From a virus (Duplodnaviria > Heunggongvirae > Uroviricota > Caudoviricetes): a stretch of 37,174 bases of DNA. A model generated the notes under the pieces. The model did not search any database, was not told the DNA's origin, and was given only the letters and a program-made list of their open reading frames with translations. Position 1 is the first letter of the stretch. The number at the start of each line of letters is the position of its first letter. Both the position numbers and the translations under genes were made by a program. Where the stretch lies: IMG/VR virus record IMGVR_UViG_2671181127_000013, positions 1 through 37,174 of that record; one strand, given 5' to 3'. This document shows, one piece after another, positions 473 to 33,716 of this stretch.

Positions 473-613
473 TTACTGTTTACACTGCAAGAACGCCGCA
501 AATTCTGACCACATGATGTTAAGTCTGAACTCACACGGCGAACGGTGTATCATCCAGATGGCCAACAACATGGTTAAGCATAAAATGCTCACGATGATCG
601 TTTTTTGCGGCAT
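473..613 (-). CDS. Hok/Gef-family type I toxin, 46 aa (copy B)
   Basis: My translation: MPQKTIIVSILCLTMLLAIWMIHRSPCEFRLNIMWSEFAAFLQCKQ; about 60 percent identical to copy A, same C-terminal EFAAFLQCKQ. Confidence 0.55.
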   Translation of the reverse strand: MPQKTIIVSILCLTMLLAIWMIHRSPCEFRLNIMWSEFAAFLQCKQ

Positions 614-747
614 AGCGCTTGACTCCTTTTACAGGGAGGCGCTAACCTTCCACTTGTCTAGGGTAGGAATGGTTAGGGCCTCGGGTTAAACAATATGTTT
701 GACTCGGGGCCTTTCCACATCCGGCCTTCAGGTTTTCCTTCCAGCCG

Positions 748-1050
748 TCAGCCGAAAGGCACCCGCGCGTAATGTACTGGTTTTAAAGCCATACCGCAAT
801 CCTCCAGTTGTAGCGTTAACTGACTGCGTCCCTGATGGGATTTGCGCATTGTCTCCCGTGGAATATCTTTATCGTGGAAGATCAACTGAGGCTGGCCAAT
901 AATTCTGTGCACACTTTCCATTGTTGAAAATGTGGCGCTGCACTCAAGGTTATTGCACTGATAGTATTTGTAGCGGATGGTGCCGGTATCATTGGCGGCT
1001 TTACTGGTACGGATCCGGGCAGATGCGCCGCAGAATGGACAATGAAACAT
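748..1050 (-). CDS. ogr: Ogr/Delta-type zinc-finger late-gene transcriptional activator (100 aa)
   Basis: MFHCPFCGASARIRTSK...YYQCNNLECSATFSTMESV matches the P2 Ogr Cys4 zinc finger; start moved to the internal ATG at 1050 (upstream GGGGG SD); the ORF-track N-terminal extension was rejected. Confidence 0.85.
   Translation of the reverse strand: MFHCPFCGASARIRTSKAANDTGTIRYKYYQCNNLECSATFSTMESVHRIIGQPQLIFHDKDIPRETMRKSHQGRSQLTLQLEDCGMALKPVHYARVPFG
771..799 (-). promoter_or_regulatory. Putative sigma70 promoter of hok-like copy B (TTGCGG-17 bp-TACATT), lying inside the 3' end of the ogr ORF
   Basis: Same -35/-10 spacing as the copy A promoter; sits just upstream of the conserved ~160-bp leader. 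Confidence 0.4.
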
Positions 1051-1094
1051 TGATATACCCCCCTGGCTGAACTGGGGTTGAACTCGTCGCCATT

Positions 1095-2219
1095 CTAACC
1101 ATTGCTTTCCTTTTCGGCTATCCACTCGGGTATTCTTGCCTCCAGTTCAAGCCTTGTGGTGAAGCCGCTTCCGTCGATATTGTGTTCCACTTTTGCAATG
1201 AGCCAGTCCTGATTGTCTATCTCGGTTTTAAAGCCGGTTACCGTGCCATGCATTTCAGGGTAAAGCTCCGCTCTGCCCCGGGCCAGCGTGATGGAGAATT
1301 CAGCCGCACCGCGCTGTAATTGCTGCCACCTGGCGGCAGCTGCGCGCTGTGCAGCAATTTCGTTTGGGTAGGTTTTTCTCAGAACGAACACGTTACCTTC
1401 TGCCCCCTCCATGTAGCTGCCTTCCCGGCTGCTGCTCTTTTCAGCGTGAGTTTTTCGTTTTTTTATGTTGACGGCTTTCTTTTTGCCATGATTCAAATCC
1501 AGCCAGTACGCCTTCACCCCTGTGTATGCCTGGCGATCGGCTATTCTGAACTGGTGACTGTCTCCGTCACTGCGTGCCAGTGCAAATGAGGGGAGTGGGC
1601 GCCCGTCAGCTGTCACGCCGCCACCCGGCAGAATGAACAGCAGACAGCCATTTTTGACGGTAGTGATGGCTCCCAGCATATCAGCCATGCGGGTAAGGAA
1701 TGATATGTCGCTTTCTTCCGTCTGGTCGGCATGATCGATTTCAATATCCATAAGCATATCGCTTATCTGGGCTTTCAGTCCGTAACGGTGGGCAATAGCG
1801 GAAACCACGCGTTCAACAGTCACGTCGTGCCAGGATACTTCCCGTTTGACGTTAAATTCCTCCCTGAAGTCTGCGCTGTTTGCACTCAGTGTCAGCCGAT
1901 CCGGAGGTCCTTCATGAGCGACCTCATCAACAATGTAGGTGCCTTTATCAACCAGAGGCTCTCCCTTCCATCCCAGCATGACTCTGATGTGTGTTCCCCG
2001 CCCGGGGAGAGCCAGTTGCCCGTCGGCATCATCCAGCACAAGAGTGACCCTGTCTGCTTCAAACCCCCGGTTGTCTGTCATGGAAAGCGATATCACCCGG
2101 TTATTCAGTTCCTGAAGTGTGTTTTTATCCTGCTCCCTGTCCAGTGAAACGCTGAAATCAGGCATTTTCACCAGTTCTTTCAGGGGGGAATAAACCGTGT
2201 TACCGTTCAGCAATACCAT
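1095..2219 (-). CDS. D: Tail protein D (late control gene D family)
   Basis: LSMTDNRGFEADRVTLVLDDADG motif typical of Phage_GPD; start set at ATG 2219 with GGAGG SD; the longer ORF-track N-terminus overlaps FI and is not credible. Confidence 0.9.
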   Translation of the reverse strand: MVLLNGNTVYSPLKELVKMPDFSVSLDREQDKNTLQELNNRVISLSMTDNRGFEADRVTLVLDDADGQLALPGRGTHIRVMLGWKGEPLVDKGTYIVDEVAHEGPPDRLTLSANSADFREEFNVKREVSWHDVTVERVVSAIAHRYGLKAQISDMLMDIEIDHADQTEESDISFLTRMADMLGAITTVKNGCLLFILPGGGVTADGRPLPSFALARSDGDSHQFRIADRQAYTGVKAYWLDLNHGKKKAVNIKKRKTHAEKSSSREGSYMEGAEGNVFVLRKTYPNEIAAQRAAAARWQQLQRGAAEFSITLARGRAELYPEMHGTVTGFKTEIDNQDWLIAKVEHNIDGSGFTTRLELEARIPEWIAEKESNG

Positions 2220-2373
2220 AATTCCTCCGTTTTTCCCGCCACAGTTGCATACCAGAAACACCACCGGAATGAGTTTGGGTTGTATGTGTATTGCGAGAAA
2301 CCGCAGTTCGTGAAAAAGCTCCCCGTGTTCGTAAAGATCTCTGCTGAACTCACACGAATGCAGGGTGAATAAT

Positions 2374-3561
2374 ATGGCTGAAACCCGTTTCCATGGCGTG
2401 CGGGTCCGGGAGAATGCGGATCTGGTCACGGCCATTAATGATATTGACTCCAGTGTGATTGGTATCGTGGCTGTTGCTGATGATGCTGATGCAAAAACAT
2501 TTCCGCTGGATAAGCCGGTGCTCCTGACGCGCGTTATGGATGTGCTGGGTAAGGCCGGGAAAACCGGCACGCTGTACAAAAGTCTGAAAGCTATTGCCGA
2601 TCAGGTCAGCACCAGAGTTGTTGTGGTGCGGGTTGCTGCTGCGAAGGAGGGGGATGGTCAGCCGACACAAACGCAGCTTGTTATTGGTGAGGTCAAAAAT
2701 GACGGAACCTATACAGGCATGCAGGCGCTCCTGGTGGCTGAACAGAATGAGGCTGTTGGTGTTCGTCCCAGGATCCTGGCTGTGCCATCGCTTGACACCA
2801 AAGAGGTGGTGGCGGCACTGGTAACCGTCGCGAAAAAGCTGCGTGCCTTTGTGTATGCGGGCTGTCCCGGCTGTAATACCGTGCAGGAGGCTGTCACCTG
2901 GCGCGCCGATCTTGCTCACCGTGAAGTTATGCTGATCTGGCCTGATTTTATCGCGTACAACCCTAACAGTGGCCAGAATGAGGCTTTTCCTGCATCTGCG
3001 TATGCGTGCGGGTTGCGTGCGAAGATTGACCACGAGCAGGGCTGGCATAAATCCCTGTCCAATGTGGCAGTGAATAATGTCCTGGGTATTTCTGTGCCGG
3101 TGTTCTGGTCGCTCCAGGCAGAGGACAGTGACGCGGAAACCCTCAATGACAAGGAGATCACCACACTCATTAAACGTAACGGCTTCCGTTTCTGGGGTAA
3201 CCGGACTCTCGACACCACTACCTACACCTTTGAGACCTACACGCGTACGGCGCAGTCGCTGGCGGATACCATCGCCGAATCGCAGTTTGAAACCGTGGAC
3301 AAGCCGCTGACGCCGTCGAACGTGAAGGATGTGTTAAGCGATATCCGGGCAAAACTGAGTGCCCTTGTGACAGCGGGTAAACTTATCGGGGCAGAGTGCT
3401 GGTATGACGTGGTGGATAACGGCACAACGGATCTGCGTCAGGGGATTGTGCGGATCCGCTACAGATATACGCCGGTACCACCGCTTGAAGATCTGGAGCT
3501 TCACCAGACGTTTACTGATGAGTTCTTTGACGGTGCATTTGCATCACTGGGAGGTGAGTAA
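2374..3561 (+). CDS. FI: Tail sheath protein FI
   Basis: Close similarity along its length to P2 gpFI (FPLDKPVLLT, RPRILAVPSLDTKEV, MLIWPDF, GFRFWGNRT, YTRTAQ, PVPPLE). Confidence 0.9.
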   Translation: MAETRFHGVRVRENADLVTAINDIDSSVIGIVAVADDADAKTFPLDKPVLLTRVMDVLGKAGKTGTLYKSLKAIADQVSTRVVVVRVAAAKEGDGQPTQTQLVIGEVKNDGTYTGMQALLVAEQNEAVGVRPRILAVPSLDTKEVVAALVTVAKKLRAFVYAGCPGCNTVQEAVTWRADLAHREVMLIWPDFIAYNPNSGQNEAFPASAYACGLRAKIDHEQGWHKSLSNVAVNNVLGISVPVFWSLQAEDSDAETLNDKEITTLIKRNGFRFWGNRTLDTTTYTFETYTRTAQSLADTIAESQFETVDKPLTPSNVKDVLSDIRAKLSALVTAGKLIGAECWYDVVDNGTTDLRQGIVRIRYRYTPVPPLEDLELHQTFTDEFFDGAFASLGGE

Positions 3562-4070
3562 TGGCGGTACCAAACAAACTTCGCGTTTTCACGGTGTACA
3601 TCGATGGCGAAAACAAGCTGGGGCGGGTGACGTCCTTCACGCCGCCTAAACTGACCCGAAAAACGGAGTCCTTCCGTGGTGCCGGGATGCCCGGCAGTGT
3701 TTCCGTCGACTTTGGTCTTGATGATGGTGCACTGGATCTCTCTTTTGCGGTAGGCGGCGCAGATGCCCACCTTTTCTCCCGTTATGCCGGGTCACTTGAT
3801 GAAGTCCGTCTTCGCTTTTCCGGTGAGTACTATTCGGATGCGGATATCAGATATGTGGATATTGAGGTCCGCGGGCGCATCACTGAAATCGATATGGGGG
3901 AGGCGAAGCAGGGTGAAGACACTGAGCACAGTTATTCGATGAAAAACACCTGGTACAGACTGAGTGTGGACGATCGGGAAAAAATCGAATTTGATGTGCT
4001 GAATTTTATCTGGCGCATTGACGGTAAGGATGTGCTGCCGGATCGCACCCGCTCGATGCTGGGCTTCTGA
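3561..4070 (+). CDS. FII: Tail tube protein FII
   Basis: 169 aa directly after FI with ATG overlapping the FI stop and GGAGGTGA SD; position and size match P2 gpFII. Confidence 0.85.
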   Translation: MAVPNKLRVFTVYIDGENKLGRVTSFTPPKLTRKTESFRGAGMPGSVSVDFGLDDGALDLSFAVGGADAHLFSRYAGSLDEVRLRFSGEYYSDADIRYVDIEVRGRITEIDMGEAKQGEDTEHSYSMKNTWYRLSVDDREKIEFDVLNFIWRIDGKDVLPDRTRSMLGF

Positions 4071-4117
4071 TTATTGTTTAACAGAGAACGGCGGGGATCC
4101 CGCCGTGGAGACTGAAA

Positions 4118-4507
4118 ATGGATAAAGAAACGGAAATGGCCACTGACACTGCCGTCAGTAACGGGGAGGCTTCCGCGGTGGCAGTTGCCGCTACGGCTGC
4201 ACCTAAGAACGTGGTGAAGCTGACGGTGCCTGTTGTGCGCGGAGATGTGTCGTACAGTGAAATTAAAATCGGACCGCTGGCGAATCAGGCCGGATCGCTG
4301 CGTGGGCTGTCTTTGCTTGCGCTTTACAACATGAACTGTGATGCCATGGTCACCTGGCTTGCGCGTGTGACAGAGCCAAAACTTAAGGAGGCCGAAATGT
4401 ATGCCATGAATACGGCGGATTTTACGGCGCTGAGCTCGGCGGCGGTTAATTTTTTCGCACCCTCGGGGTCGAATGCACCGGCACCGGAGAACACGGCAGA
4501 GCCGTAA
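4118..4507 (+). CDS. E: Tail assembly chaperone E (E/E' frameshift pair)
   Basis: Position between FII and T; slippery TTTTTTC near its 3' end with an open -1 frame running to the T start. Confidence 0.7.
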   Translation: MDKETEMATDTAVSNGEASAVAVAATAAPKNVVKLTVPVVRGDVSYSEIKIGPLANQAGSLRGLSLLALYNMNCDAMVTWLARVTEPKLKEAEMYAMNTADFTALSSAAVNFFAPSGSNAPAPENTAEP

Positions 4508-4654
4508 CCTGTCTTTGCTTTGACTGCATTGAAGATCCCGTTGCGGATATTGCTGTTATTTTTAACTGGCCGCCCGCAGAGATATTTGCAATGACGCCTG
4601 CAGAGGTGGTCGCCTGGCGTGAGCGGGCGGCTGCCAGAAGCGGAAGTCACAATC

Positions 4655-7447
4655 ATGATGAATAATCTGCATATCAGGGTTGCTCTGGCGGCGGCAGACA
4701 CCCTGACACAACCTCTCAGGCGCGCCCGCGAAACCGTGGGCGCGCTTTCTGATTCCCTCCGTGAAACTCAGGACTCCATCCGCTCGCTTGAACGGCAGAG
4801 TGAAGCCTTTGCTGCGGCACAGACTAAATTTGACGAAGCCACCCGGAAAATTGCCGCTGTTCAGCAGCAACTGAACCGTCTGCAGCAGGCGGAGCGTGAG
4901 GGTACCGTGCTCAGTGAACGGCAGCGTGAAATGATGGCTTCGCTGACCACCCGGCTTGAACGTCTGAACCGGGTGAGGGATGTACATCAGCGACGCCTGG
5001 AGGATTCACGCCGGGAGCTGGAGAGACACGGTATTGCCGCAGAGGGCAGCAGTCAGACCATACAGGCAGCCATTCGCCGGACGGCAGAGTATAACGAAGA
5101 GCTGGCGCGACAGCGGCAGGCACTCGCACAGGTGACCCGTGCACAGCAACGCTATGAACAGGCGCAGGAGCGACTCGGGCGGATACGTAATGCCGGTGCG
5201 GCGGCACTGGCTGCCGGTGCAGCAGGACTTTACGCTGGCGGGCGTGCTGTTGCGCCGGTGATGGATCTCCAGCGTCATGGTGCCGTCATTGCGGCTCAGG
5301 CAGGAGAGGGCGCGTCAGATGCCGTGGGGTATACCGGGGTTATAAACCACATGGTTCATACCGGTATCACACCGGATGCACAACTGGCGGCTGAAGCTGT
5401 GGGTGCTGTCCGCTCCACTCTGGGTGGGCTGGGGGCGGTTAGTGAGAATGAACTGACCCGAATCACCCGAAAAATGCTGGATATGCAGGCCGTGATGGGG
5501 GGCGATATCCCGCAGCACATTCAGGCGGCTGCCATCATGATCAAAAACGGTCTTGCACGCAGCAGTGACGAGGCGGTTGATCTGATGGTGGCGGGCATGC
5601 AGCGCATGGGGCCGGTTATGCGCGATGAGCTGCCTGAGATCCTTCACGAGTATTCGACCCATTTTCGTAACATGGGGCTGACAGGGTCGGAAACCATGAC
5701 GCTCCTTGCGGATATGGCGCAGCAGGGGAAGTTTGCGCTGGATAAAACCGGCGATGCCATCAAGGAGTTCAGTATTCGCGGCTCCGATATGTCAAAGGCG
5801 AGTGCTGAAGCGTATGCGCTTATCGGGCTGGATGCAGCCAGGATGTCATCGGCTGTAGCCAGTGGTGGAACGGCTGCACGGGCTGCGCTGCAGAAAACAG
5901 CCTCGGGTCTGTTGCAGATCGTCGATCCGGCTGAGCGGGCCAATGCGGCCATCGCACTTTTTGGTACACCGGTTGAAGATCTGTCTGTCGATCAAATCCC
6001 TGCCTTTCTTGGCGCGCTGGCGCGGGTGTCTGACCGTATGGCTGACGTGTCTGGTGTGGCGGACCGGATGGGGCAAACCCTGCGTGACAATCTGAGTGGT
6101 GATGTGGCGCGGCTTACCGGGACGTTCAGCGCGCTGAGAAGTGGGATTATCGGGGAGATTACGGACGATCTGCGTGGGCTTGTCCGGATGGCCACAGCGT
6201 GGGGTGAGCGTCTGCAGGCGTGGGTGAATGCGCATCCGGAACTGGTGCGAATGATTGCGCTGACGACGGGAGCGGTGCTGGCGTTAACCACAGCGATGGG
6301 GGCGTTGTCCGTTGCGGCCTGGATGGTTGTCGCACCGTTACTGAAACTGCGTCTGGGGCTTGCCCTGCTTCGCGCGATCCCGGCCGGACTCTCTGTTGCC
6401 GGTACGCTGTTTGGCGGACTGACGGGTGTGATTTCAGCCGTGGGGGCTGCGCTGGGGGCGCTGACCTGGCCGGTTGTGGTGGCGGTGGGAGCCCTGGTCG
6501 GTGGTGCTCTGCTGATCTGGCGCTACTGGGATCGGGTCAGGGCGTTTGTGAGCGGATTTATTGAAGGGGTACAGTCAGCACTGGCGCCCTTCATGGCGAC
6601 AGCCTCCCGTTTTGCGCCGCTGCTGGATCTGGTTTCAGGGGCACTGTCCCGTATTCTGGGATGGTTTAAATCCCTGTTAACGCCGGTCTCCTCCACGCGT
6701 GATTTGCTTGAGCAGTGCACCTCTGCCGGGCAGACGTTCGGGAGCACTCTGGCCGGTGCGTTAGCCACGGTTTTTTCGCCCCTGAAAGCTCTGATTGACG
6801 GTCTGGCGTGGGTGCTGGAAAAACTCGGTGTTCTGCCCGGTGAAGCTGAGCGGGTTAAGCGAAAACTGGATGAGGCCCGTAAAACGCCGGTGGCATGGGA
6901 GTGGGATCCGGAACAGAAAAAAATGGTTCAGAAGGCGTGGCACTGGTCGCCTCCTGGTGGGGCCAGTGTGCCTTCCGGCGCCTCCGGTACACAGCCTCCG
7001 CCGGTGGCGCTCCCTGCGGGGATAGCGCCGGACGGTAACCGTAACGTTCTCCGTCACCTGAAAGGCATTGAGGGGAATACCGGTGGTCTGCTGGCTGAAA
7101 ACCGTAAACGTATCGGACCCGGAGATATTGTGTTTAAACATCTTCCACGGGCGCTGGCGGTCCGGGGGCAGTGGCATGAACCTGTCGTTGCGCCGTCTTC
7201 CGGCGGAATGCGCGCGCTGCCACAGGAGGAGATTCAGGTGCAGCAATGGCCGACGGCACGCCCGGCGCCACGAATGCACCAGCAGGAAACCTTCGCCAGC
7301 GCCTTTCAGGGGGAGATACATGTGCATCTTCACGGGGTGAGTTCGTATAATCCCCGGGAACTGGCGCGCATGGTTGGTGACGCTGTCAGGGCGGAAATGA
7401 ACAGAATGGCACGTGCCGGAACCGGCAGCTTCCGCGATCGCGACTGA
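4655..7447 (+). CDS. T: Tail tape measure protein T
   Basis: About 930 aa, coiled-coil N-terminal region, central Ala/Gly-rich hydrophobic segments; start chosen at ATGATG 4655 rather than the GTG at 4619. Confidence 0.85.
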   Translation: MMNNLHIRVALAAADTLTQPLRRARETVGALSDSLRETQDSIRSLERQSEAFAAAQTKFDEATRKIAAVQQQLNRLQQAEREGTVLSERQREMMASLTTRLERLNRVRDVHQRRLEDSRRELERHGIAAEGSSQTIQAAIRRTAEYNEELARQRQALAQVTRAQQRYEQAQERLGRIRNAGAAALAAGAAGLYAGGRAVAPVMDLQRHGAVIAAQAGEGASDAVGYTGVINHMVHTGITPDAQLAAEAVGAVRSTLGGLGAVSENELTRITRKMLDMQAVMGGDIPQHIQAAAIMIKNGLARSSDEAVDLMVAGMQRMGPVMRDELPEILHEYSTHFRNMGLTGSETMTLLADMAQQGKFALDKTGDAIKEFSIRGSDMSKASAEAYALIGLDAARMSSAVASGGTAARAALQKTASGLLQIVDPAERANAAIALFGTPVEDLSVDQIPAFLGALARVSDRMADVSGVADRMGQTLRDNLSGDVARLTGTFSALRSGIIGEITDDLRGLVRMATAWGERLQAWVNAHPELVRMIALTTGAVLALTTAMGALSVAAWMVVAPLLKLRLGLALLRAIPAGLSVAGTLFGGLTGVISAVGAALGALTWPVVVAVGALVGGALLIWRYWDRVRAFVSGFIEGVQSALAPFMATASRFAPLLDLVSGALSRILGWFKSLLTPVSSTRDLLEQCTSAGQTFGSTLAGALATVFSPLKALIDGLAWVLEKLGVLPGEAERVKRKLDEARKTPVAWEWDPEQKKMVQKAWHWSPPGGASVPSGASGTQPPPVALPAGIAPDGNRNVLRHLKGIEGNTGGLLAENRKRIGPGDIVFKHLPRALAVRGQWHEPVVAPSSGGMRALPQEEIQVQQWPTARPAPRMHQQETFASAFQGEIHVHLHGVSSYNPRELARMVGDAVRAEMNRMARAGTGSFRDRD

Positions 7448-7457
7448 GGTGAAAAAG

Positions 7458-7949
7458 ATGATGATGATTTATGGGATGTTTGTGTTTCAGTTAAGTACCC
7501 TGCCGCATCAGCAGGTGGAACAGAGTAAACGCTGGCGACACGTCAGTAATGAACGGGTTAACCGTTCATCCTCCTGGCAGTATATTGGCTCTGGTGAAGA
7601 TCACATCACGATGTCCGGTGTGCTCTGTCCGGAAATCACCGGCGGGGAGGTGTCACTGACTGCCCTGAACACCCTGGCCTACACAGGATTACCCTGGCCA
7701 CTGATTGATGGTGTCGGACAGATTTACGGGATGTATGTCATTACGGAAATCAGGACCACCCGTCAGGAGCTGGATCGCTATGGCATGGCCCGCAAAATTG
7801 AGTTCACTGTCAGCTTTCAGCGATGCAATGAAGATCTGCGTGAGCGTCTTCAGTCGGGCTCGGTGGGTGATCTGATGGCAGGATTAAAAAACAGCGCGTC
7901 GTCGGCCCTGTCGTCGGCGTCCTCTGCGCTGTCTGGTCTCATGTTGTGA
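7458..7949 (+). CDS. U: Tail protein U
   Basis: MMMIYGMFVFQLSTLPHQ...PLIDGVGQIYGMYVITEI...IEFTVSFQR resembles P2 gpU; start at 7458 with GAGGTG SD. Confidence 0.85.
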   Translation: MMMIYGMFVFQLSTLPHQQVEQSKRWRHVSNERVNRSSSWQYIGSGEDHITMSGVLCPEITGGEVSLTALNTLAYTGLPWPLIDGVGQIYGMYVITEIRTTRQELDRYGMARKIEFTVSFQRCNEDLRERLQSGSVGDLMAGLKNSASSALSSASSALSGLML

Positions 7950-7959
7950 AGGTCACTGT

Positions 7960-8547
7960 TCAGGCTTCGGCTTCTTTTCCCCAGCCAACCTTATAGTCCA
8001 GAATCGCCGCCGTATCGTTCAGGGCGGCGATCTCTTTTTTCATGTTACGCTGGCGAATGTGAATTTCCATCCCTTTGGCAAACAGGGCTTTTGCGGCTGC
8101 ATCGCTGAGGGCAATCAGCTCATCAGCAGAAACAGGAACATCGTTGTTCTGTGCATCAGTCCAGAAAAAATCCAGCGGCAGGATCCCCGCTTTTGCGGCA
8201 GCAACGGAAGGCTCAAGGCGGGCCTGCGTTGACTTCCCGTAGTCCCATTTCCTGCCGTTATGTTCAAAGGTGTAACTCGCCGCTTCCATCGCATTACGCC
8301 AGGCGTTGATTTCGTCGTTTTTCAGGCGTCTGGCGTTTTCCCTGTCAGTGTCGTTTTCCTGGTATTCAGATACAGAGCCGTGATTTCCTGCTTTCAGTTC
8401 GCCCCAGAGTTTTTTGCCGTGTGGCGAGTTGTCATATTCGGTTGCCGTATAGGGCAGCCAGCTCTCCTCCCCTTCAAACTGGATCTCACAGTCGATAGTG
8501 CCGTCACGGTTATAAGCGGCATTTCTTGCTGATTTGATTGTGTGCAT
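7960..8547 (-). CDS. G: Tail fiber assembly protein (gpG/Tfa-like)
   Basis: 195 aa immediately downstream of tail fiber gene H; GGAGAG SD. Confidence 0.75.
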   Translation of the reverse strand: MHTIKSARNAAYNRDGTIDCEIQFEGEESWLPYTATEYDNSPHGKKLWGELKAGNHGSVSEYQENDTDRENARRLKNDEINAWRNAMEAASYTFEHNGRKWDYGKSTQARLEPSVAAAKAGILPLDFFWTDAQNNDVPVSADELIALSDAAAKALFAKGMEIHIRQRNMKKEIAALNDTAAILDYKVGWGKEAEA

Positions 8548-8558
8548 GAGTCTCTCCG

Positions 8559-20697: not shown

Positions 20698-20852
20698 GGA
20701 AATTCTCCATAACCTGGTCGTTTTTCCCATGATGGCGGCAGATAACGGTGTGTCTCAAGGTGCTTAAGTTGTATGGCGACGGGGACAACGCGGGCTGGTA
20801 TCAGGCGGTATTGCTGAGGCTTAATCTTGCCCTGTTAATGTCAGGGGGTGCA

Positions 20853-24204: not shown

Positions 24205-24704
24205 GTCGCTCTCCTTTGGTCTGTTTATGCCAGCCTGTATTCTGCGCTCACCTCATATTGTGCGCAAGTTTTCACCCGTGAATGACTGATACTTTAAATT
24301 CTATTAACTTTATGATTTCAGTGATTTTTGTCTCTCTTTTTTATCCCGTTCGTCACGTCCGTTTCCCTCCCGATCTCCGACCTCGCCAGACGCAATCAGA
24401 CGCATTCTGACGGCCTGTTTCCCTGACCATGTTTTGATGTGGTTTTTCAAAACTGACTTTACTGCGTGCGTATCACGCGCCATACGACCCCAAATAAAGC
24501 AACCCGCCTTCCATCCCTCAATTCGGGCGCCCTTCCCTCGTCGCCTGCGCGCAGCGATCGCCTCGTTTTTCGTGCACCGTGCAAAGTGGCTTCAGCCAGC
24601 GCCGTTACTGGGCTGAAAGGGTAAAAAACACATAAGAAAAATTGTGCAATTTCGTGCACTTTTGTGCGGTTTTCCAGGTGGTGTTTATGCGGGAATCGCA
24701 GGCT

Positions 24705-24734
24705 AAAAAAAGCATGAGCGGGGATTGCCCCCGC
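24705..24734 (-). terminator. Rho-independent terminator of the two-gene module
   Basis: Minus-strand GCGGGG-loop-CCCCGC hairpin just after the stop at 24740, followed by a T7 run. Confidence 0.5.
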
Positions 24735-24739
24735 GATAT

Positions 24740-25117
24740 TCATGCCGCCCGATGAGCTTCACCTACTGACGGGTCTATTATGATTTCAAAATCCGTGAAC
24801 AACGCTTTCGGCTGTACGCAGTTACCTTGTTTTTCCAGGCTGACAAAGCCGTATCGACTCAGCATTTTTAACGTTGCTGACAAATTACTTAACTGCCTTC
24901 CTGAAAGACTGGCAAGTTCTGTCATTGTCTGCGGTTTTTCCGCATCCATGATACGCAGAAGCGCGATATTTTCGTTGCTCAGCGCCTGACCCAGAGCGTT
25001 CAGAGATGAAAACCAGACTCGCGGTTCGTCAGGTTCTGGTTTTAGTTTCCCTTTGGCTATATCCAGCATTCTCTGGCGAAGGACTTTCTCCGGGATAATG
25101 CCGATACGGGCTTTCAT
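24740..25117 (-). CDS. Winged-HTH DNA-binding protein (125 aa), second gene of two-gene module
   Basis: TMTELASLSGRQLSNLSATLKMLSRYGFVSL is a typical wHTH recognition segment; start overlaps upstream stop (ATGA). Confidence 0.6.
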   Translation of the reverse strand: MKARIGIIPEKVLRQRMLDIAKGKLKPEPDEPRVWFSSLNALGQALSNENIALLRIMDAEKPQTMTELASLSGRQLSNLSATLKMLSRYGFVSLEKQGNCVQPKALFTDFEIIIDPSVGEAHRAA

Positions 25118-25488
25118 TTCTTCCCCCTTTGCTGTTCAGCAATCACTCTGTCTACATGGTTAAAGAAATCCAGTAAAAGCTGTTCCGCAGAAGTGAATTC
25201 ATATGGATAGCCTTTATCGGACGATGTTCTGTGAATATGGTCATAAACGGTAATGCGCCCGGTAAATTTCCCTTTCTTTGGTGGCTTTATTCCGTGAGCG
25301 TTATCCATTCCAAAAACCCGGGAGTTATAAGGATCGTGCAATGTCAGGTTGTAGCGTATTCCATGTGGTCTGAACTGGCTTGGGCTAACCCTGTATGCTT
25401 CAATCTTCCACCAGTAACCATTATCCATGTGGTGCTGGTATCCATGCATATCCAGAAGGGTGTTCAGCCCATGATCATTGTTTTTCAT
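25114..25488 (-). CDS. Hypothetical His/Tyr/Trp-rich protein (124 aa), first gene of two-gene module
   Basis: Clean ORF translationally coupled to the wHTH gene; preceded by an AT-rich intergenic region; family not recognised. Confidence 0.55.
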   Translation of the reverse strand: MKNNDHGLNTLLDMHGYQHHMDNGYWWKIEAYRVSPSQFRPHGIRYNLTLHDPYNSRVFGMDNAHGIKPPKKGKFTGRITVYDHIHRTSSDKGYPYEFTSAEQLLLDFFNHVDRVIAEQQRGKK

Positions 25489-25671
25489 AACTGATTCGTA
25501 TCACCTTACTTATGACCAAATCATAACATCGTTTTTTTCTTTATCAAGGTGGGTTATTGTGCTGTTCTTGTGGTTATCGACGTTAACTTATGTACATATT
25601 TGAATTCGTAGTGGTTAATATGAAAAAAGTGTCTGACGAATTTGACGGCTTCTGAATACGTAAAACTGTGT

Positions 25672-25703
25672 CAGGCGGAGTATGTTTCTCCGCCTTTTTG
25701 TTT
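25672..25703. terminator. Hairpin plus T-run between the SSB-like gene and the two-gene module
   Basis: GGCGGAG-TATGTTT-CTCCGCC followed by TTTTTGTTT on the plus strand; orientation ambiguous. Confidence 0.4.
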
Positions 25704-25742
25704 GTGCCAGCCCGGCGTCTCACATCATTACTCACATATTGA

Positions 25743-26060
25743 TCATATTGCGGTTCTTGAGCTGATAATGCTTTGTGCCAGCAACTGCCAGCCTTCTTTC
25801 ATCTGTCCGTATTTGTCCTGATATCTGTTTACCTGCAAGTTCCCGTGCACCTGTACCAGGTCGCCTTTTTTGTGTTTTGCCAGTTCTTCGTGCTGCTTCC
25901 CGAATGCGATAAGGTAAAGCCACATTGTGGTTGACTGTTCTGCGCCATGGCCGGGCAGTGATATCGCCAGTCGTGCAGCTGTTACATCGGTGCCTCTGGA
26001 TGATTTTCTTGTCGTCGGGTCTTCCGCCAGTCGTCCCCGTGTTGCAATCTGCGTTGTCAT
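25743..26060 (-). CDS. SSB-like OB-fold protein (105 aa)
   Basis: Pattern L..DP..R......V...RLA.S.........W....AFGK.AE....KKGD.V.V.G.L....Y.DK.G parallels E. coli SSB OB-fold core; start at ATG 26060 with GGAGA SD. Confidence 0.5.
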   Translation of the reverse strand: MTTQIATRGRLAEDPTTRKSSRGTDVTAARLAISLPGHGAEQSTTMWLYLIAFGKQHEELAKHKKGDLVQVHGNLQVNRYQDKYGQMKEGWQLLAQSIISSRTAI

Positions 26061-26083
26061 ATTTGTCTCCGTTGGTGGTTTAG

Positions 26084-26431
26084 TTATTGGACTGATATGA
26101 CTGGCAGATCTCCGCCAGCGCCGTAGATAAACAGAATTCGCTTCATGACTTCGCTGCGCTTGCAGACTTCGATGACTGATTTTTCCTGTTGCCATTCAGC
26201 CCGTTGCGCCAGCTCCAGTCGTTCCTCTTCCGTTGGCTTCCGGTAATGCGTTATCTTGTCCGTGTACCCGTCCACAACCAGCAGGCCTTCCCGTACCATT
26301 TTTCCGGCGGCCTGATTGATGACGGTTCTTTTCACGCCCAGTTTTTCTACCAGTTCCGGTGCGCTGAAGCGTGCGTGCGTTTCCAGGTAGCGTAAAATGA
26401 TTTCCTTTCCGGTCATTCCTGGGGTCTTCAT
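26084..26431 (-). CDS. Putative winged-helix DNA-binding protein (115 aa)
   Basis: Start at ATG 26431 with AAGGAG SD; EIILRYLETHARFSAPELVEKLGVKRTVINQAAGKMVREGLL resembles a wHTH. Confidence 0.45.
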   Translation of the reverse strand: MKTPGMTGKEIILRYLETHARFSAPELVEKLGVKRTVINQAAGKMVREGLLVVDGYTDKITHYRKPTEEERLELAQRAEWQQEKSVIEVCKRSEVMKRILFIYGAGGDLPVISVQ

Positions 26432-29562: not shown

Positions 29563-29966
29563 TCCCCGGCAGTTGCCACCTGAAACGCCGCGCGGTACAG
29601 CACGAGAAGGCGCTGATATTCACCGATAAAGTCTTCTGCGGTGTATATGCCTTTCACGGCCACGCTGTGGGTTGTCATTTCCAGAACCAGCGCCATCTCT
29701 GATGACGACCAGCTGATGGTGGTGCTGTCGGTGCCGTTGATGTGAAATAAACCCAGTCCATCACCATCACCTTTCACGTCCACGCGGTAACGACCGTCAA
29801 CGGTGAAGGAGAAATCCCCGGATGTGGTGATGCTGCGGGCAGCCTGTTTACAGGCGCGGCGGTAATAGTCGTGCCAGTCGTTCAGGCGGGAAGCCAGCCG
29901 GGGATCCACTGCCCACATCCAGTTAAAAAAATCCTGAATATCTGAAAGTCCCTTAACGCTCTTCAT
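29550..29966 (-). CDS. Hypothetical protein (138 aa) upstream of A
   Basis: ORF overlapping the A start. Confidence 0.45.
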   Translation of the reverse strand: MKSVKGLSDIQDFFNWMWAVDPRLASRLNDWHDYYRRACKQAARSITTSGDFSFTVDGRYRVDVKGDGDGLGLFHINGTDSTTISWSSSEMALVLEMTTHSVAVKGIYTAEDFIGEYQRLLVLYRAAFQVATAGECDA

Positions 29967-30034
29967 GAGAACCTCCGGTAACAGATGTGCGGAAGCCTCC
30001 CGCGTACGGGTGCGGGATGGCTTCAGGATGTTGT

Positions 30035-30262
30035 TTAGTGGTGGTGTTGCTGGTTGATAAGGTCCTGCAGCTCCGCGAGATCATCCGCCAGGTAGCTGAA
30101 AACAGCGGCACAGTAACGGTTTGACAGAGCGTGAGTGCGCTCATGCAGCATATTGATGTGCATGATTTGCGCGACGCGTGAGGCGCGGAAAAGTCTGCGG
30201 TTGATTTCAGTGCGGATGTGAAGACGCTCAGCGCGGGCGCGCTGTTGCTTGCGGTTTGCCAT
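30035..30262 (-). CDS. Hypothetical basic protein (75 aa)
   Basis: ORF; Arg-rich N-terminus, His-rich C-terminus. Confidence 0.35.
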   Translation of the reverse strand: MANRKQQRARAERLHIRTEINRRLFRASRVAQIMHINMLHERTHALSNRYCAAVFSYLADDLAELQDLINQQHHH

Positions 30263-30441
30263 GGTGTGGCCTCTTTGCTAGTAAGTTCTGAAAACTCACC
30301 ATCCAGAGCTGCGAAACTGTGGGTGGCGAGACGTACGAGGTTCGCAGTACCGGCTAGCAAAGAACCCGGCCCGACCGAAGTCGGCCCCGTACGCCCCGCC
30401 ATTATTCTGACGCGAAAAAGACGTGGCGATACAGTACGCAC

Positions 30442-30462
30442 AAAAAAACCGCTGGCGCGGTT
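30442..30462 (-). terminator. Putative rho-independent terminator separating early-left genes from the replication module
   Basis: Minus-strand ACCGC-GCCA-GCGGT hairpin followed by T7. Confidence 0.4.
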
Positions 30463-30645
30463 GTGCGCTTTGCTAGTCGGCGGGCTGCGAAACCCGGCAC
30501 CCGTTTTATGAGATGCGGGAAAACTGTAACCCGACCAGACGAGCGCTGGCAAGCGGTTTTTGTGTTGCGTGCTGATGTGGTTAGAATGTGGCGAATTAAT
30601 ATCACCTGGCAACTGGTGATTGTCTGCATACGCGGGGTGTTTCTG

Positions 30646-31110
30646 ATGAGTGATAAGCTCCCTTCTGATTACGACATTCTTTTTGACCTGTGGTACAGCT
30701 ACTGGCTTGAACGTATTACATGTGTGTTTCACCGACGCGTTTCTGCTGCTCTGCGAATCAGCGCCTTTCTGGTTGGTGTTGCGGCGTTTGTCCTGTGTGA
30801 TTTTGTTGTGTTGGTACTCTTCAGTGTGGTTCTGTTTCTGCTCTGGCAGTGCATGGCTGCCAGTTTTGAACGCAGGGCTGAAAAGGCTGAATGGCAGACA
30901 GTCAGTTACCAGCGCCTTATCAGTCAGCGCCATGTGATTAGTAAGGAATGCATGATTGCGCGCCTCTCCTTTGTTGAGGAAAGTGACAGTCCCATCATGG
31001 AGTGCATGATTAATCTTGCCTGGAATAAAGCCTGTGAGGCGGTTGGCAGCTCTTCGCGCAATCATGTTTCGATCTCCGGTCGGTTACTCAGTCGCCTGTG
31101 CGGCTTTTGA
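30646..31110 (+). CDS. Putative membrane protein (about 154 aa) encoded opposite to the early operon
   Basis: ATG at 30646; 30-residue hydrophobic stretch ISAFLVGVAAFVLCDFVVLVLFSVVLFLLW; possible TTGTGT-16 bp-TAGAAT promoter upstream. Confidence 0.35.
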   Translation: MSDKLPSDYDILFDLWYSYWLERITCVFHRRVSAALRISAFLVGVAAFVLCDFVVLVLFSVVLFLLWQCMAASFERRAEKAEWQTVSYQRLISQRHVISKECMIARLSFVEESDSPIMECMINLAWNKACEAVGSSSRNHVSISGRLLSRLCGF

Positions 31111-31911: not shown

Positions 31912-32892
31912 TCACGTACTGGCAGGGGTAAACATCACGCTGTAAGTTGCATCTCCCGTCACAGGTCCGCAGTCCGGGCAGTAGCCACCGCCATAGTGAC
32001 CGCAGGCGTTGCACTGTCTCAGGGTGGCGATAACTTCCGGTGCTGGTTCGCGGGTTCTTGCTCCAACGCTTCGTGGTGCCTGTATGCAGTTCATCCGGTA
32101 ACCCCGATAAATGCGTCTGGTTTCCGGTGTGTCGGAATTGGAGATGGTGATTCTGGTCATGCCGCCCGTTTCCTGCGAAAGGCGGTCAAGTGCTGCCCTC
32201 AGGCGAACGTGCTCGTGTTCATCGAATGGTTTTCCGTAGGCGGTGAAATTGCCCTCGCCACTGAACCGCAGGTAAGGGGGATCGCAGTACACGCAAAGCG
32301 TGTTGCCCATGCCGAACAGGTGACTGGCAGAGCTCAGCGTATCCTTAAAATCTGCGTGGATAAGCAGCGTTTGGGTGCTGTTTGCCTTGTCTGCAAATGC
32401 GCGGATTTCCCGCTCAGGGAAGTAGGGTTTTCGGTAGCCGCCGAAAGGCACGTTAAAATCACCTTTTCCGTTCACCCGGTACAGGCCATTAAAACAGTGC
32501 CGGTTGAGGTACAAAAACATGGCGGCCAGTCGCAGTTCACGGCGGTCGCTTATTCCCGTTCTGCTACTCAGGAAGGCATGATTCTCTGCGTTAAAGGTTT
32601 CGCGAATGATGAGATAGTCACCCCTGTTGTTGTGGTTCAGGAACAGGGTTTTCGCCTCGTCGATCAGACTGTCGGTGTTGTCCCGTGCTGCCCGCCAGAA
32701 ATTAATCAGCGCACCATTGGAATCACCCAGGATGTAACGCTTGTAACTGGTGTTCATGAATACCGATGCGCCACCCACGAACGGTTCAACCAGGCAGTCA
32801 GCTTCTGGCAGATGCGCCTTCAGTGTGTTCATGATGCGGCTTTTGCCACCCACCCATTTCAGCGGTGTGCCGGATAACAGTTCTTTGCTCAT
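31912..32892 (-). CDS. DNA adenine N6-methyltransferase (Dam/D12 class) with C-terminal Cys-rich extension
   Basis: LKWVGGK N-terminal motif and DPPY catalytic motif; C-terminal CNACGHYGGGYCPDCG. Confidence 0.85.
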   Translation of the reverse strand: MSKELLSGTPLKWVGGKSRIMNTLKAHLPEADCLVEPFVGGASVFMNTSYKRYILGDSNGALINFWRAARDNTDSLIDEAKTLFLNHNNRGDYLIIRETFNAENHAFLSSRTGISDRRELRLAAMFLYLNRHCFNGLYRVNGKGDFNVPFGGYRKPYFPEREIRAFADKANSTQTLLIHADFKDTLSSASHLFGMGNTLCVYCDPPYLRFSGEGNFTAYGKPFDEHEHVRLRAALDRLSQETGGMTRITISNSDTPETRRIYRGYRMNCIQAPRSVGARTREPAPEVIATLRQCNACGHYGGGYCPDCGPVTGDATYSVMFTPAST

Positions 32893-33125: not shown

Positions 33126-33716
33126 TCATATGTTCAGGAATGGTGTTGTGAAGCGCTGCCAGATTTCTGACACGACCTTTGCCTGGTAAACGGCGTCGCC
33201 CAGCGCGGTGTGAGCAATGGTCTCTTTGCCTGATCGGCCTGGCATTCTCCAGCCGGTTGATTCAGCCATGGCGATAAGCGGACGCATACAGCGCTCGTCC
33301 CAGTAGCACCAGGGGATGCTTTTTTCTCCGGCTGTGCGTGTTATGGCGGATTTCAGGATTGGGAAATCGAAGGATGCGCCTTTGCACCATATGGTCAGTG
33401 AATTGCCCGGGCTTTCGTCATGCATATTGCGTGAAATGAACGCCAGAAATTCGGTCACTGCTGCCAGCTCTGTTCCATCTGCGTTGCGCAGGCAGGCTCT
33501 GGCTTCCACGGATTGTCCGGCCCACCATACAGCGGTGGCTGCATTGACGGTTCCGCCGTTGCGTTCTGAATCCACCGGGTCGATGAATTTCTCAAACTGC
33601 TTGCCCAGCTTTCCGGTGAACGGGTCGAAAAACACCGCCCCAATCGCGAATATGGCTGCGTCCGGTCCGTTACCCAGTGTTTCGGTGTCAATCATGAGAT
33701 GGTTCATTATGCGCAC
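33126..33716 (-). CDS. DEDDh-family 3'-5' exonuclease (DnaQ-like)
   Basis: Exo I motif MIDTETLG and Exo III motif HTALGDAVYQ. Confidence 0.75.
   Translation of the reverse strand: MRIMNHLMIDTETLGNGPDAAIFAIGAVFFDPFTGKLGKQFEKFIDPVDSERNGGTVNAATAVWWAGQSVEARACLRNADGTELAAVTEFLAFISRNMHDESPGNSLTIWCKGASFDFPILKSAITRTAGEKSIPWCYWDERCMRPLIAMAESTGWRMPGRSGKETIAHTALGDAVYQAKVVSEIWQRFTTPFLNI

Follow-up and report, generated by a model that had tools for sequence, protein, structure and literature searches.

Inverted FI-U tail gene block and a predicted bidirectional late promoter in an Escherichia coli prophage of the P88-like Peduoviridae

An analysis of the tail genes was conducted for a 37,174 nucleotide stretch of phage DNA, IMG/VR record IMGVR_UViG_2671181127_000013, which is referred to here in its full length as the window. 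The window is an Escherichia coli prophage adjoining serS. It carries a complete P2-like contractile tail module, in which FI, FII, T, gpU and gpD are recognisable with expectation (E) values of 1e-15 to 1e-151 in PHROG and Pfam. Genes were identified from a listing of the open reading frames (ORFs) together with PHROG and Pfam scans of the window (Table 1) and, being supported by homology, are not in question as chance calls. The ORF listing and the scans agree with a first-pass annotation of the sequence in assigning ogr, D and G-H-I-J-W-V to the minus strand and FI-FII-E-T-U to the plus strand. The start codons of D (ATG at 2219) and FI (ATG at 2374) diverge across a gap of 154 bp, previously put at about 150 bp, and U and G converge with 10 bp between their stop codons, as had been estimated.

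In phage P2 (Peduovirus) the order V-W-J-I-H-G-(fun/Z)-FI-FII-E-T-U-D-ogr is collinear, which was confirmed in the P2 record. There, FI-FII-E-T-U-D form a single collinear operon in which D directly adjoins U, and fun(Z) is located between G and FI. P2 and the window share the gene set, the -1 frameshift of E and E', an activator of the Ogr type, and a pF-like site located similarly far upstream of FI. The window differs in that FI to U are reversed and D is apart from U, and its proteins are 32 to 55% identical to those of P2. It is exactly the FI-U block that is flipped in place relative to P2, as expected of the inversion separating D from U that had been proposed, and the block looks intact. 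The Ogr/Delta activator gene sits downstream of D, as it does in P2-like modules.

Several gene boundaries were adjusted. The start codons of T and U were corrected to those given in Table 1. The ogr ORF remains open as far as a GTG at 1125 (748-1125), although the start at 1050, assigned by the Prokaryotic Genome Annotation Pipeline (PGAP) in near-identical E. coli prophages, is probably the true one. The E' frame runs into the start of T, and a P2-type E/E+E' frameshift signal is present upstream of T, from which an E/E+E' pair produced by -1 programmed frameshifting is predicted, as in P2. In the PGAP annotation, an ORF of the 'GpE family' corresponds in position to 4528-4665.

Table 1. Genes and intergenic features of the tail region of the window.
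Feature	Product or description	Position	Strand	Evidence or note
ogr	Ogr/Delta-type zinc-finger late activator	748-1050	minus	RefSeq/PGAP start; Pfam Ogr_Delta E 1.2e-15, 57.5 bits (cut-off 26.3)
D	gpD tail/baseplate hub protein, not part of the flipped block	1095-2219	minus	PHROG 52 E 7e-151; Pfam Phage_GPD
D/FI spacer	Divergent spacer, 154 bp	2220-2373		Sequence
FI	gpFI tail sheath	2374-3561	plus	PHROG 23 E 9e-119; Pfam sheath domains
FII	gpFII tail tube	3561-4070	plus	Pfam Phage_tube E 8e-49
E	gpE-like tail assembly chaperone	4118-4507	plus	PHROG 103 E 1e-28
E'	Predicted extension of E, -1 frame	4450-4665 open	plus	Slippery TTTTTTC at 4450-4456
T	gpT tape measure protein	4655-7447	plus	PHROG 28 E 9e-105; PGAP start
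U	gpU tail protein, final gene of the flipped block	7458-7949	plus	Pfam Phage_P2_GpU E 1e-38
U/G junction	Convergent, 10 bp between stops	7950-7959		Stops: U 7947-7949, G 7960-7962
G-equivalent	Tail-fibre assembly-like (DUF4376)	7960-8547	minus	PHROG 1141; Pfam DUF4376
H	gpH tail fibre	8559-9899	minus	Pfam Phage_tail_fib and Phage_fiber_2
I	Baseplate	9899-10522	minus	Pfam Tail_P2_I; tblastn against Shae_phiSM and P2; PGAP
J	Baseplate	10515-11411	minus	tblastn correspondence with Shae_phiSM and P2; PGAP coordinates
W	Baseplate	11398-11763	minus	tblastn correspondence with Shae_phiSM and P2; PGAP coordinates
V	Baseplate	11760-12341	minus	tblastn correspondence with Shae_phiSM and P2; PGAP coordinates

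The FI and D proteins of the window were searched by tblastn against 50,697 phage records. In every record with an FI at least 58% identical, FI and D are on opposite strands and about 200 bp apart. These records include P88, P88-4B11, Shae_phiSM, PhiR44_2, Chuche, 500465-2, 520873, Enterobacter phiT5282H, Klebsiella 3LV2017, ST16-OXA48phi5.4, approximately 25 Kp48xx records, Serratia KSP20, and Salmonella SEN4/SEN5. Their taxonomy covers five Peduoviridae genera of the International Committee on Taxonomy of Viruses (ICTV): Xuanwuvirus, Novemvirus, Reginaelenavirus, Reipivirus, and Senquatrovirus, with P88, P88-4B11, and PhiSM as Xuanwuvirus members with the flipped order. Even the fragment known from Serratia KSP20 is annotated with a gpD-like gene on the minus strand beside a gpFI-like gene on the plus strand.

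Bacterial genomes, one per species, were also scanned with the FI protein, giving 80 loci that form two groups, and 13 tail genes were placed in each locus by tblastn. All 25 loci with an FI 68 to 77% identical to that of the window have ogr and D on the minus strand and FI through U on the plus strand, and H, I, J, W, and V are on the minus strand in all of these that reach that far, except one. Their hosts are Enterobacterales species, including Salmonella, Citrobacter, Edwardsiella, Enterobacter, Kosakonia, Symbiopectobacterium, Erwinia, Pantoea, Trabulsiella, Izhakiella, Mixta, Klebsiella, Kluyvera, and others. The remaining 55 loci, with an FI 47 to 51% identical, are without exception collinear, as is P2. 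With Pseudomonas, Marinobacter, Oligella, and Acidovorax among the hosts of the collinear loci, the collinear order is ancestral and the flipped block derived. It is clear that the flipped order is an ordinary one, being the standard layout of a common and already sequenced P88-like group. The first-pass annotation could not tell whether the arrangement was novel or typical of a lineage; comparison of synteny with P2-like genomes places it as the norm of a well-described P2-like subgroup.

Two of the surveyed loci have peculiarities. The exception among the 25 (L021, Trabulsiella odontotermitis, at approximately 15600-17600) is the only inverted-type locus with homologues of I and H following U on the same plus strand, reflecting either a further rearrangement or an adjoining second element. 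Another (L009) comes from an assembly labelled Vagococcus sp. WN89Y, where a P88-like prophage with an FI 75% identical and a full enterobacterial tail module is present on a 226-kb contig. The host label, that of a Firmicute, is probably the result of contamination or mislabelling.

The arrangement is well represented in E. coli. Window positions 600-12400 (11.8 kb) are matched collinearly in 12 of 5426 complete genomes, at 95.8 to 99.8% identity and with agreeing PGAP annotation. Nine of the 12 match in a single piece and three in two pieces, the latter accounted for by tandem hok copies. When D, the spacer, and FI alone are used as the query (1095-3561), 1187 of the 5426 genomes (22%) have a collinear match over at least 80% of its length. 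The window is a member of the P88-like clade that is already present and annotated in RefSeq E. coli chromosomes. That a mis-joined contig produced the layout, as had earlier been considered, has nothing in its favour beyond the odd orientation relative to P2, and the identical junctions in the 12 independently closed chromosomes, as well as in the isolated phages P88 and PhiSM, make such an artefact vanishingly improbable. P88 and PhiSM are inducible and form plaques (PMC5285337, PMC6456863); the flipped layout is thus compatible with a working virus.

These occurrences also bear on whether the inversion could be recent and private to this prophage, and so a novel rearrangement. The block is indeed flipped relative to P2, and none of the deposited phage genomes matches the window closely at the DNA level: megablast coverage is no more than 18%, at approximately 72 to 84% identity, and the tail region has weak matches to Xuanwuvirus members. 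Against this, the five ICTV genera and all 25 of the related Enterobacterales loci have the identical order, as do, by the D/FI match, the 1187 complete E. coli genomes. The proteins of the relatives are just 60 to 78% identical to those of the window, indicating that the order predates much of the divergence. In addition, the D/FI spacer can be aligned throughout, and independent origins with differing breakpoints are not seen among the relatives. A private inversion is very unlikely.

Between the host serS and ogr there are two tandem Hok/Gef toxin genes, at 2-142 and 473-613 on the minus strand (coordinates transferred from PGAP). Stx phages have a 'MokW-like host killing' region to which this stretch is 89 to 91% identical, and P88-4B11 has one hok-type gene in the same place. 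An insertion as the cause of the two-piece match in strain SCU-106, with the window starting inside serS, was rejected by comparison with strain STEC17-183, which places the start of the window at the first of the two tandem hok genes.

Among the closest known systems is Xuanwuvirus (P88, P88-4B11, and Citrobacter phage Shae_phiSM/PhiSM), in which order and strands are identical: hok, then ogr and D on the minus strand, FI, FII, E, E', T and U on the plus strand, and finally the fibre genes with I, J, W and V, again on the minus strand. The D/FI spacer of Xuanwuvirus is approximately 155 bp and contains the same TTGT-N12-AGA site as the window, and the proteins are 40 to 78% identical. The ICTV criterion for a genus is a nucleotide similarity of about 70% over the genome. 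With just 38.9 to 40.7% of the window aligning to Xuanwuvirus by blastn, at approximately 70% identity, the window is far below a genus-level match and, judged by nucleotide similarity, is not a Xuanwuvirus. It also differs from Xuanwuvirus in having a nanS-p-like esterase gene and in being without parM/parR. The same flipped FI-U block beside a divergent D is present in Novemvirus phiT5282H, Reginaelenavirus 3LV2017, Reipivirus ST16-OXA48phi5.4, Senquatrovirus SEN4/SEN5, and KSP20, where FI is 58 to 73% and D 60 to 71% identical to the window. These differ from it in their hosts, which are Enterobacter, Klebsiella, Salmonella, and Serratia, and in the content of the junction between the fibre genes and U.

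That junction differs within the clade. Between U and G, Xuanwuvirus phages carry a DNA invertase together with an alternative-fibre segment that is invertible, and Reipivirus has a DUF262 gene and a second gene at the equivalent site. In the window the junction is reduced to 10 bp without cargo. The gap from U to the next convergent gene in relatives is usually 30 to 155 bp, or else is occupied by cargo, making the window the most compact of the loci surveyed. It had been suggested that the inversion removed the slot that holds Z/fun in P2. The slot is empty in the window, but it has not been abolished in the lineage, since the equivalent junction between the fibre genes and U bears cargo in Xuanwuvirus and Reipivirus.

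The presence of a serine DNA invertase exactly at the U/fibre junction of Xuanwuvirus relatives raises the idea of FI-U as an actively invertible segment, switched in the manner of Gin, Cin, or Hin; such an enzyme could in principle have made the ancestral event. The window, however, has no homologue of the invertase (tblastn with that of P88-4B11, best E 3.3), and of 153 inverted-repeat pairs, none of the 25 longest links 2220-2373 with 7940-7965. One orientation only is present in the 12 complete E. coli genomes and in every relative, and there is no obvious benefit to be had from flipping structural genes that are all required. The possibility of an invertible segment, which had been raised along with that of misassembly, can be given very little credence.

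The tail-fibre gene H is an intact 446-amino acid ORF in the window. RefSeq annotates it as fragmented pseudogenes in STEC17-183 and SCU-106, which are 99.2 to 99.8% identical over the region, whereas the 'tail-collar fiber' gene is intact in other strains.

The best explanation for the layout is an ancient, one-time inversion in place of FI-FII-E/E'-T-U, fixed at the base of the P88-like Peduoviridae clade, with a probability of roughly 0.9. By pairwise-identity clustering the inverted and collinear groups are discrete, whether judged by proteins of the block (FI, U) or by those beyond it (D, J): the lowest identity within the inverted group is 62 to 68%, and the highest between the groups is 54 to 60%. 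Compared to the inverted loci surveyed, the window is 68 to 77% identical in FI, 66 to 78% in D, and 62 to 76% in U, against no more than 51% compared to collinear phages. Senquatrovirus SEN4/5 are lower, at 58% for FI and 60% for D. In this explanation, the FI-FII-E/E'-T-U operon would have been inverted once in a common ancestor and kept since. The P2-type F operon (FI...U-D) would have been split in two, with FI-U retaining the late promoter pF, which would have moved along with the block, and D, with ogr behind it, would have become a separate leftward unit.

Replacement of the module was also considered, in which an FI-U block from a different phage lineage landed in the opposite orientation. 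In its favour are the mosaicism of P2-like phages around their tail-fibre genes, a G-like gene that lambdoid phages also have (approximately 75 to 80% DNA identity to lambdoid tail-fibre assembly genes), and the poor clustering of gpI. The divergence from P2 is, however, alike for genes inside the block (FI 48%, FII 45%, and U 46% identity) and for those flanking it (D 47%, J 52%, V 44%, and W 41%), and divergence from the collinear group is likewise equal for FI, FII, and U and for D, J, V, and W. This equality suggests that the whole tail module has one history and favours an inversion in place over the import of a foreign block. A pF-type site is also found at its usual distance from FI. 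Module replacement is thus considered unlikely, though less so than the private or switchable inversions.

Two reservations weigh against the preferred explanation of a single ancient inversion. Its singleness is suggested by identity clustering rather than by a rooted, bootstrapped phylogeny. In addition, the layout is known in the sense that public genome annotations and ICTV genera contain it, and not as something discussed in print: no explicit account of the inversion was found in papers on P88, PhiSM, Burkholderia P2-like phages, and the regulatory phylogeny of P2, or through keyword searches.

The D/FI spacer contains a putative activator site, TTGTATGTGTATTGCGAGA, at 2280-2298. This has the form TTGT-N12-AGA, is centred on 2289.5, and is followed by AAC at 2299-2301. 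In an alignment of the 25 unique (non-identical) D/FI spacers of clade members, TTGT is invariant, and TGT-N12-A[GC]A is present at the aligned position in 23. A GAACTCA block at the predicted pF start and both Shine-Dalgarno regions are conserved as well, and so are -10-like hexamers about 46 nt to each side of the site. The distance from the centre of the site to the FI ATG is 84.5 nt in the window and 81.5 nt for pF of P2; given this closeness, pF appears to have travelled with the block.

A site of the same type is present in the divergent O/P spacer of the window, TTGTATGGCGACGGGGACAAC at 20769-20789. Common to both sites is GTTGTATG, which occurs as GTTGTATG...ACAAC in O/P and as GTTGTATG...AGAAAC in D/FI. 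Each phage examined has this type of site in its own O/P spacer. The motif pairs for O/P and D/FI are GTTGTATGGCGACGGGGACAAC and GTTGTATGTGTATTGCGAGAAAC in the window, TTGTAAGAAAACAGCCAGAAC and TTGTCGCCGTGGCGGGAGAAC in P88-4B11, and TTGTCGGAGGAAGGCCAGACC and TTGTCGCCGTCCGGCCAGACC in phiT5282H. The site motif is both conserved and duplicated in this clade.

The late promoters of P2 need Ogr. Its binding site is a partially symmetric element with its centre about 55 nt ahead of the start of transcription. Two divergent late units of P2, those of pP and pO, share one such site, and the P2 record has a single activator site annotated for both promoters, with the starts 56 and 55 nt to either side. 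The geometry of the D/FI spacer matches that of pP/pO and its site is of the type found in the O/P spacers of the clade, with the second half-site being AGA and not ACA. The D/FI spacer is accordingly a candidate for a bidirectional Ogr-dependent late promoter. After the inversion D would no longer be readable from pF. The one partially symmetric site centred on 2289.5 may instead serve both pF, with a start predicted near 2345 on the plus strand, and a new promoter, pD, with a start predicted near 2233 on the minus strand. Through the leftward pD, D-ogr would gain an Ogr-activated unit of its own, an arrangement analogous to the single P/O site that serves pP and pO in P2.

The odds are slightly in favour of the wider proposal that the inversion rewired the late transcription of P2 in this clade. 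This would have created a second bidirectional Ogr promoter, with one site shared by pF and a newly evolved pD, and an auto-activated late D-ogr unit. In this prophage, FI-U and V-G would in addition read into each other, converging across 10 bp with no terminator. A new divergent late-promoter region at 2220-2373 had been postulated in the first-pass annotation, and a conserved Ogr-type site is indeed present there, from which promoter function is predicted.

Several observations detract from the promoter prediction. An exact TGT-N12-ACA is absent from 2220-2373, the site there being the AGA variant, and the eight exact matches in the window as a whole equal the chance expectation. The candidates for a -10 on the D side in the window (AACTGT or TATGCA) are weak, and the window is without the CGCGCGCG block that is found on the D side in most relatives. 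The octamer GTTGTATG is just mildly enriched, with three copies in the window against about one expected and three reached in 7 of 100 shuffles. A sigma-70 consensus scan gave no match in 2220-2373, which is as expected for promoters that depend on an activator.

The alternating CGCGCGCG block was compared in the D/FI and O/P spacers of surveyed loci L003, L005, L006, and L008-L030. In most clade members it separates the activator site from the -10-like hexamer, in D/FI on the side of D and in O/P on the side of P. The window has it in neither of its divergent late regions, and as it is missing from both, the block can be said to co-vary between the two regions within a phage. In the O/P region, the mechanical start of gpO (ATG at 20730; region 20731-20851) is just 48.5 nt from the centre of the O/P site. 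It falls inside the motif CATGATGGC, which is conserved in relatives and resembles the -10 region of pO, and the true start of gpO is probably further downstream.

At the other end of the block, the U/G junction has no terminator or stable hairpin on either strand, with fold z-scores of +0.7 and +0.9. Read-through and antisense overlap between the convergent FI-U and V-G operons seem likely from this arrangement.

As a discovery the flipped block carries little weight, being a standard layout, and approximately 22% of complete E. coli genomes bear the divergent D/FI pair. It does mean that annotation and synteny tools should not assume the P2 gene order across the Peduoviridae. The probable second bidirectional late promoter is the one modestly interesting residue. 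The conserved D/FI spacer presents a tidy natural case in which to ask whether a symmetric Ogr site can gain a second, divergent promoter after a rearrangement.

Accessory genes are present elsewhere in the window. A 688-amino acid protein with DUF1737, SASA (sialate O-acetylesterase-type), and DUF6645 domains is encoded at 13769-15835 on the minus strand, a domain layout that we take to be that of the NanS-p esterases of Stx prophages. This nanS-p-like gene is flanked by a tail-completion gene and the lysis genes, at a place that in P88 is just a short gap, and probably explains 113 matches to 'Stx2a-converting phage'. A PADLOC scan of the unannotated ORFs of the window for defence cargo found nothing significant. 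The low-GC stretch at approximately 24500-26000 (GC 0.45-0.49) has small winged-helix ORFs without a defence-system match. Accessory genes of the early region, all on the minus strand, encode a D12-class Dam methyltransferase (31912-32892), an Rv2179c-like 3'-5' exoribonuclease (33126-33716), and a single-stranded DNA-binding protein (25743-26195). Two RNAs were identified with Rfam on the minus strand, both above the gathering score: a C4 antisense RNA at 30319-30406 (82 bits) and the Hfq-binding RNA isrK at 30442-30516 (64.5 bits). They overlap a mechanical ORF at 29953-31065 that has no Pfam match, and the region resembles a P1/P7-type antisense immunity element, here within the early region of a prophage of the P2-like type.

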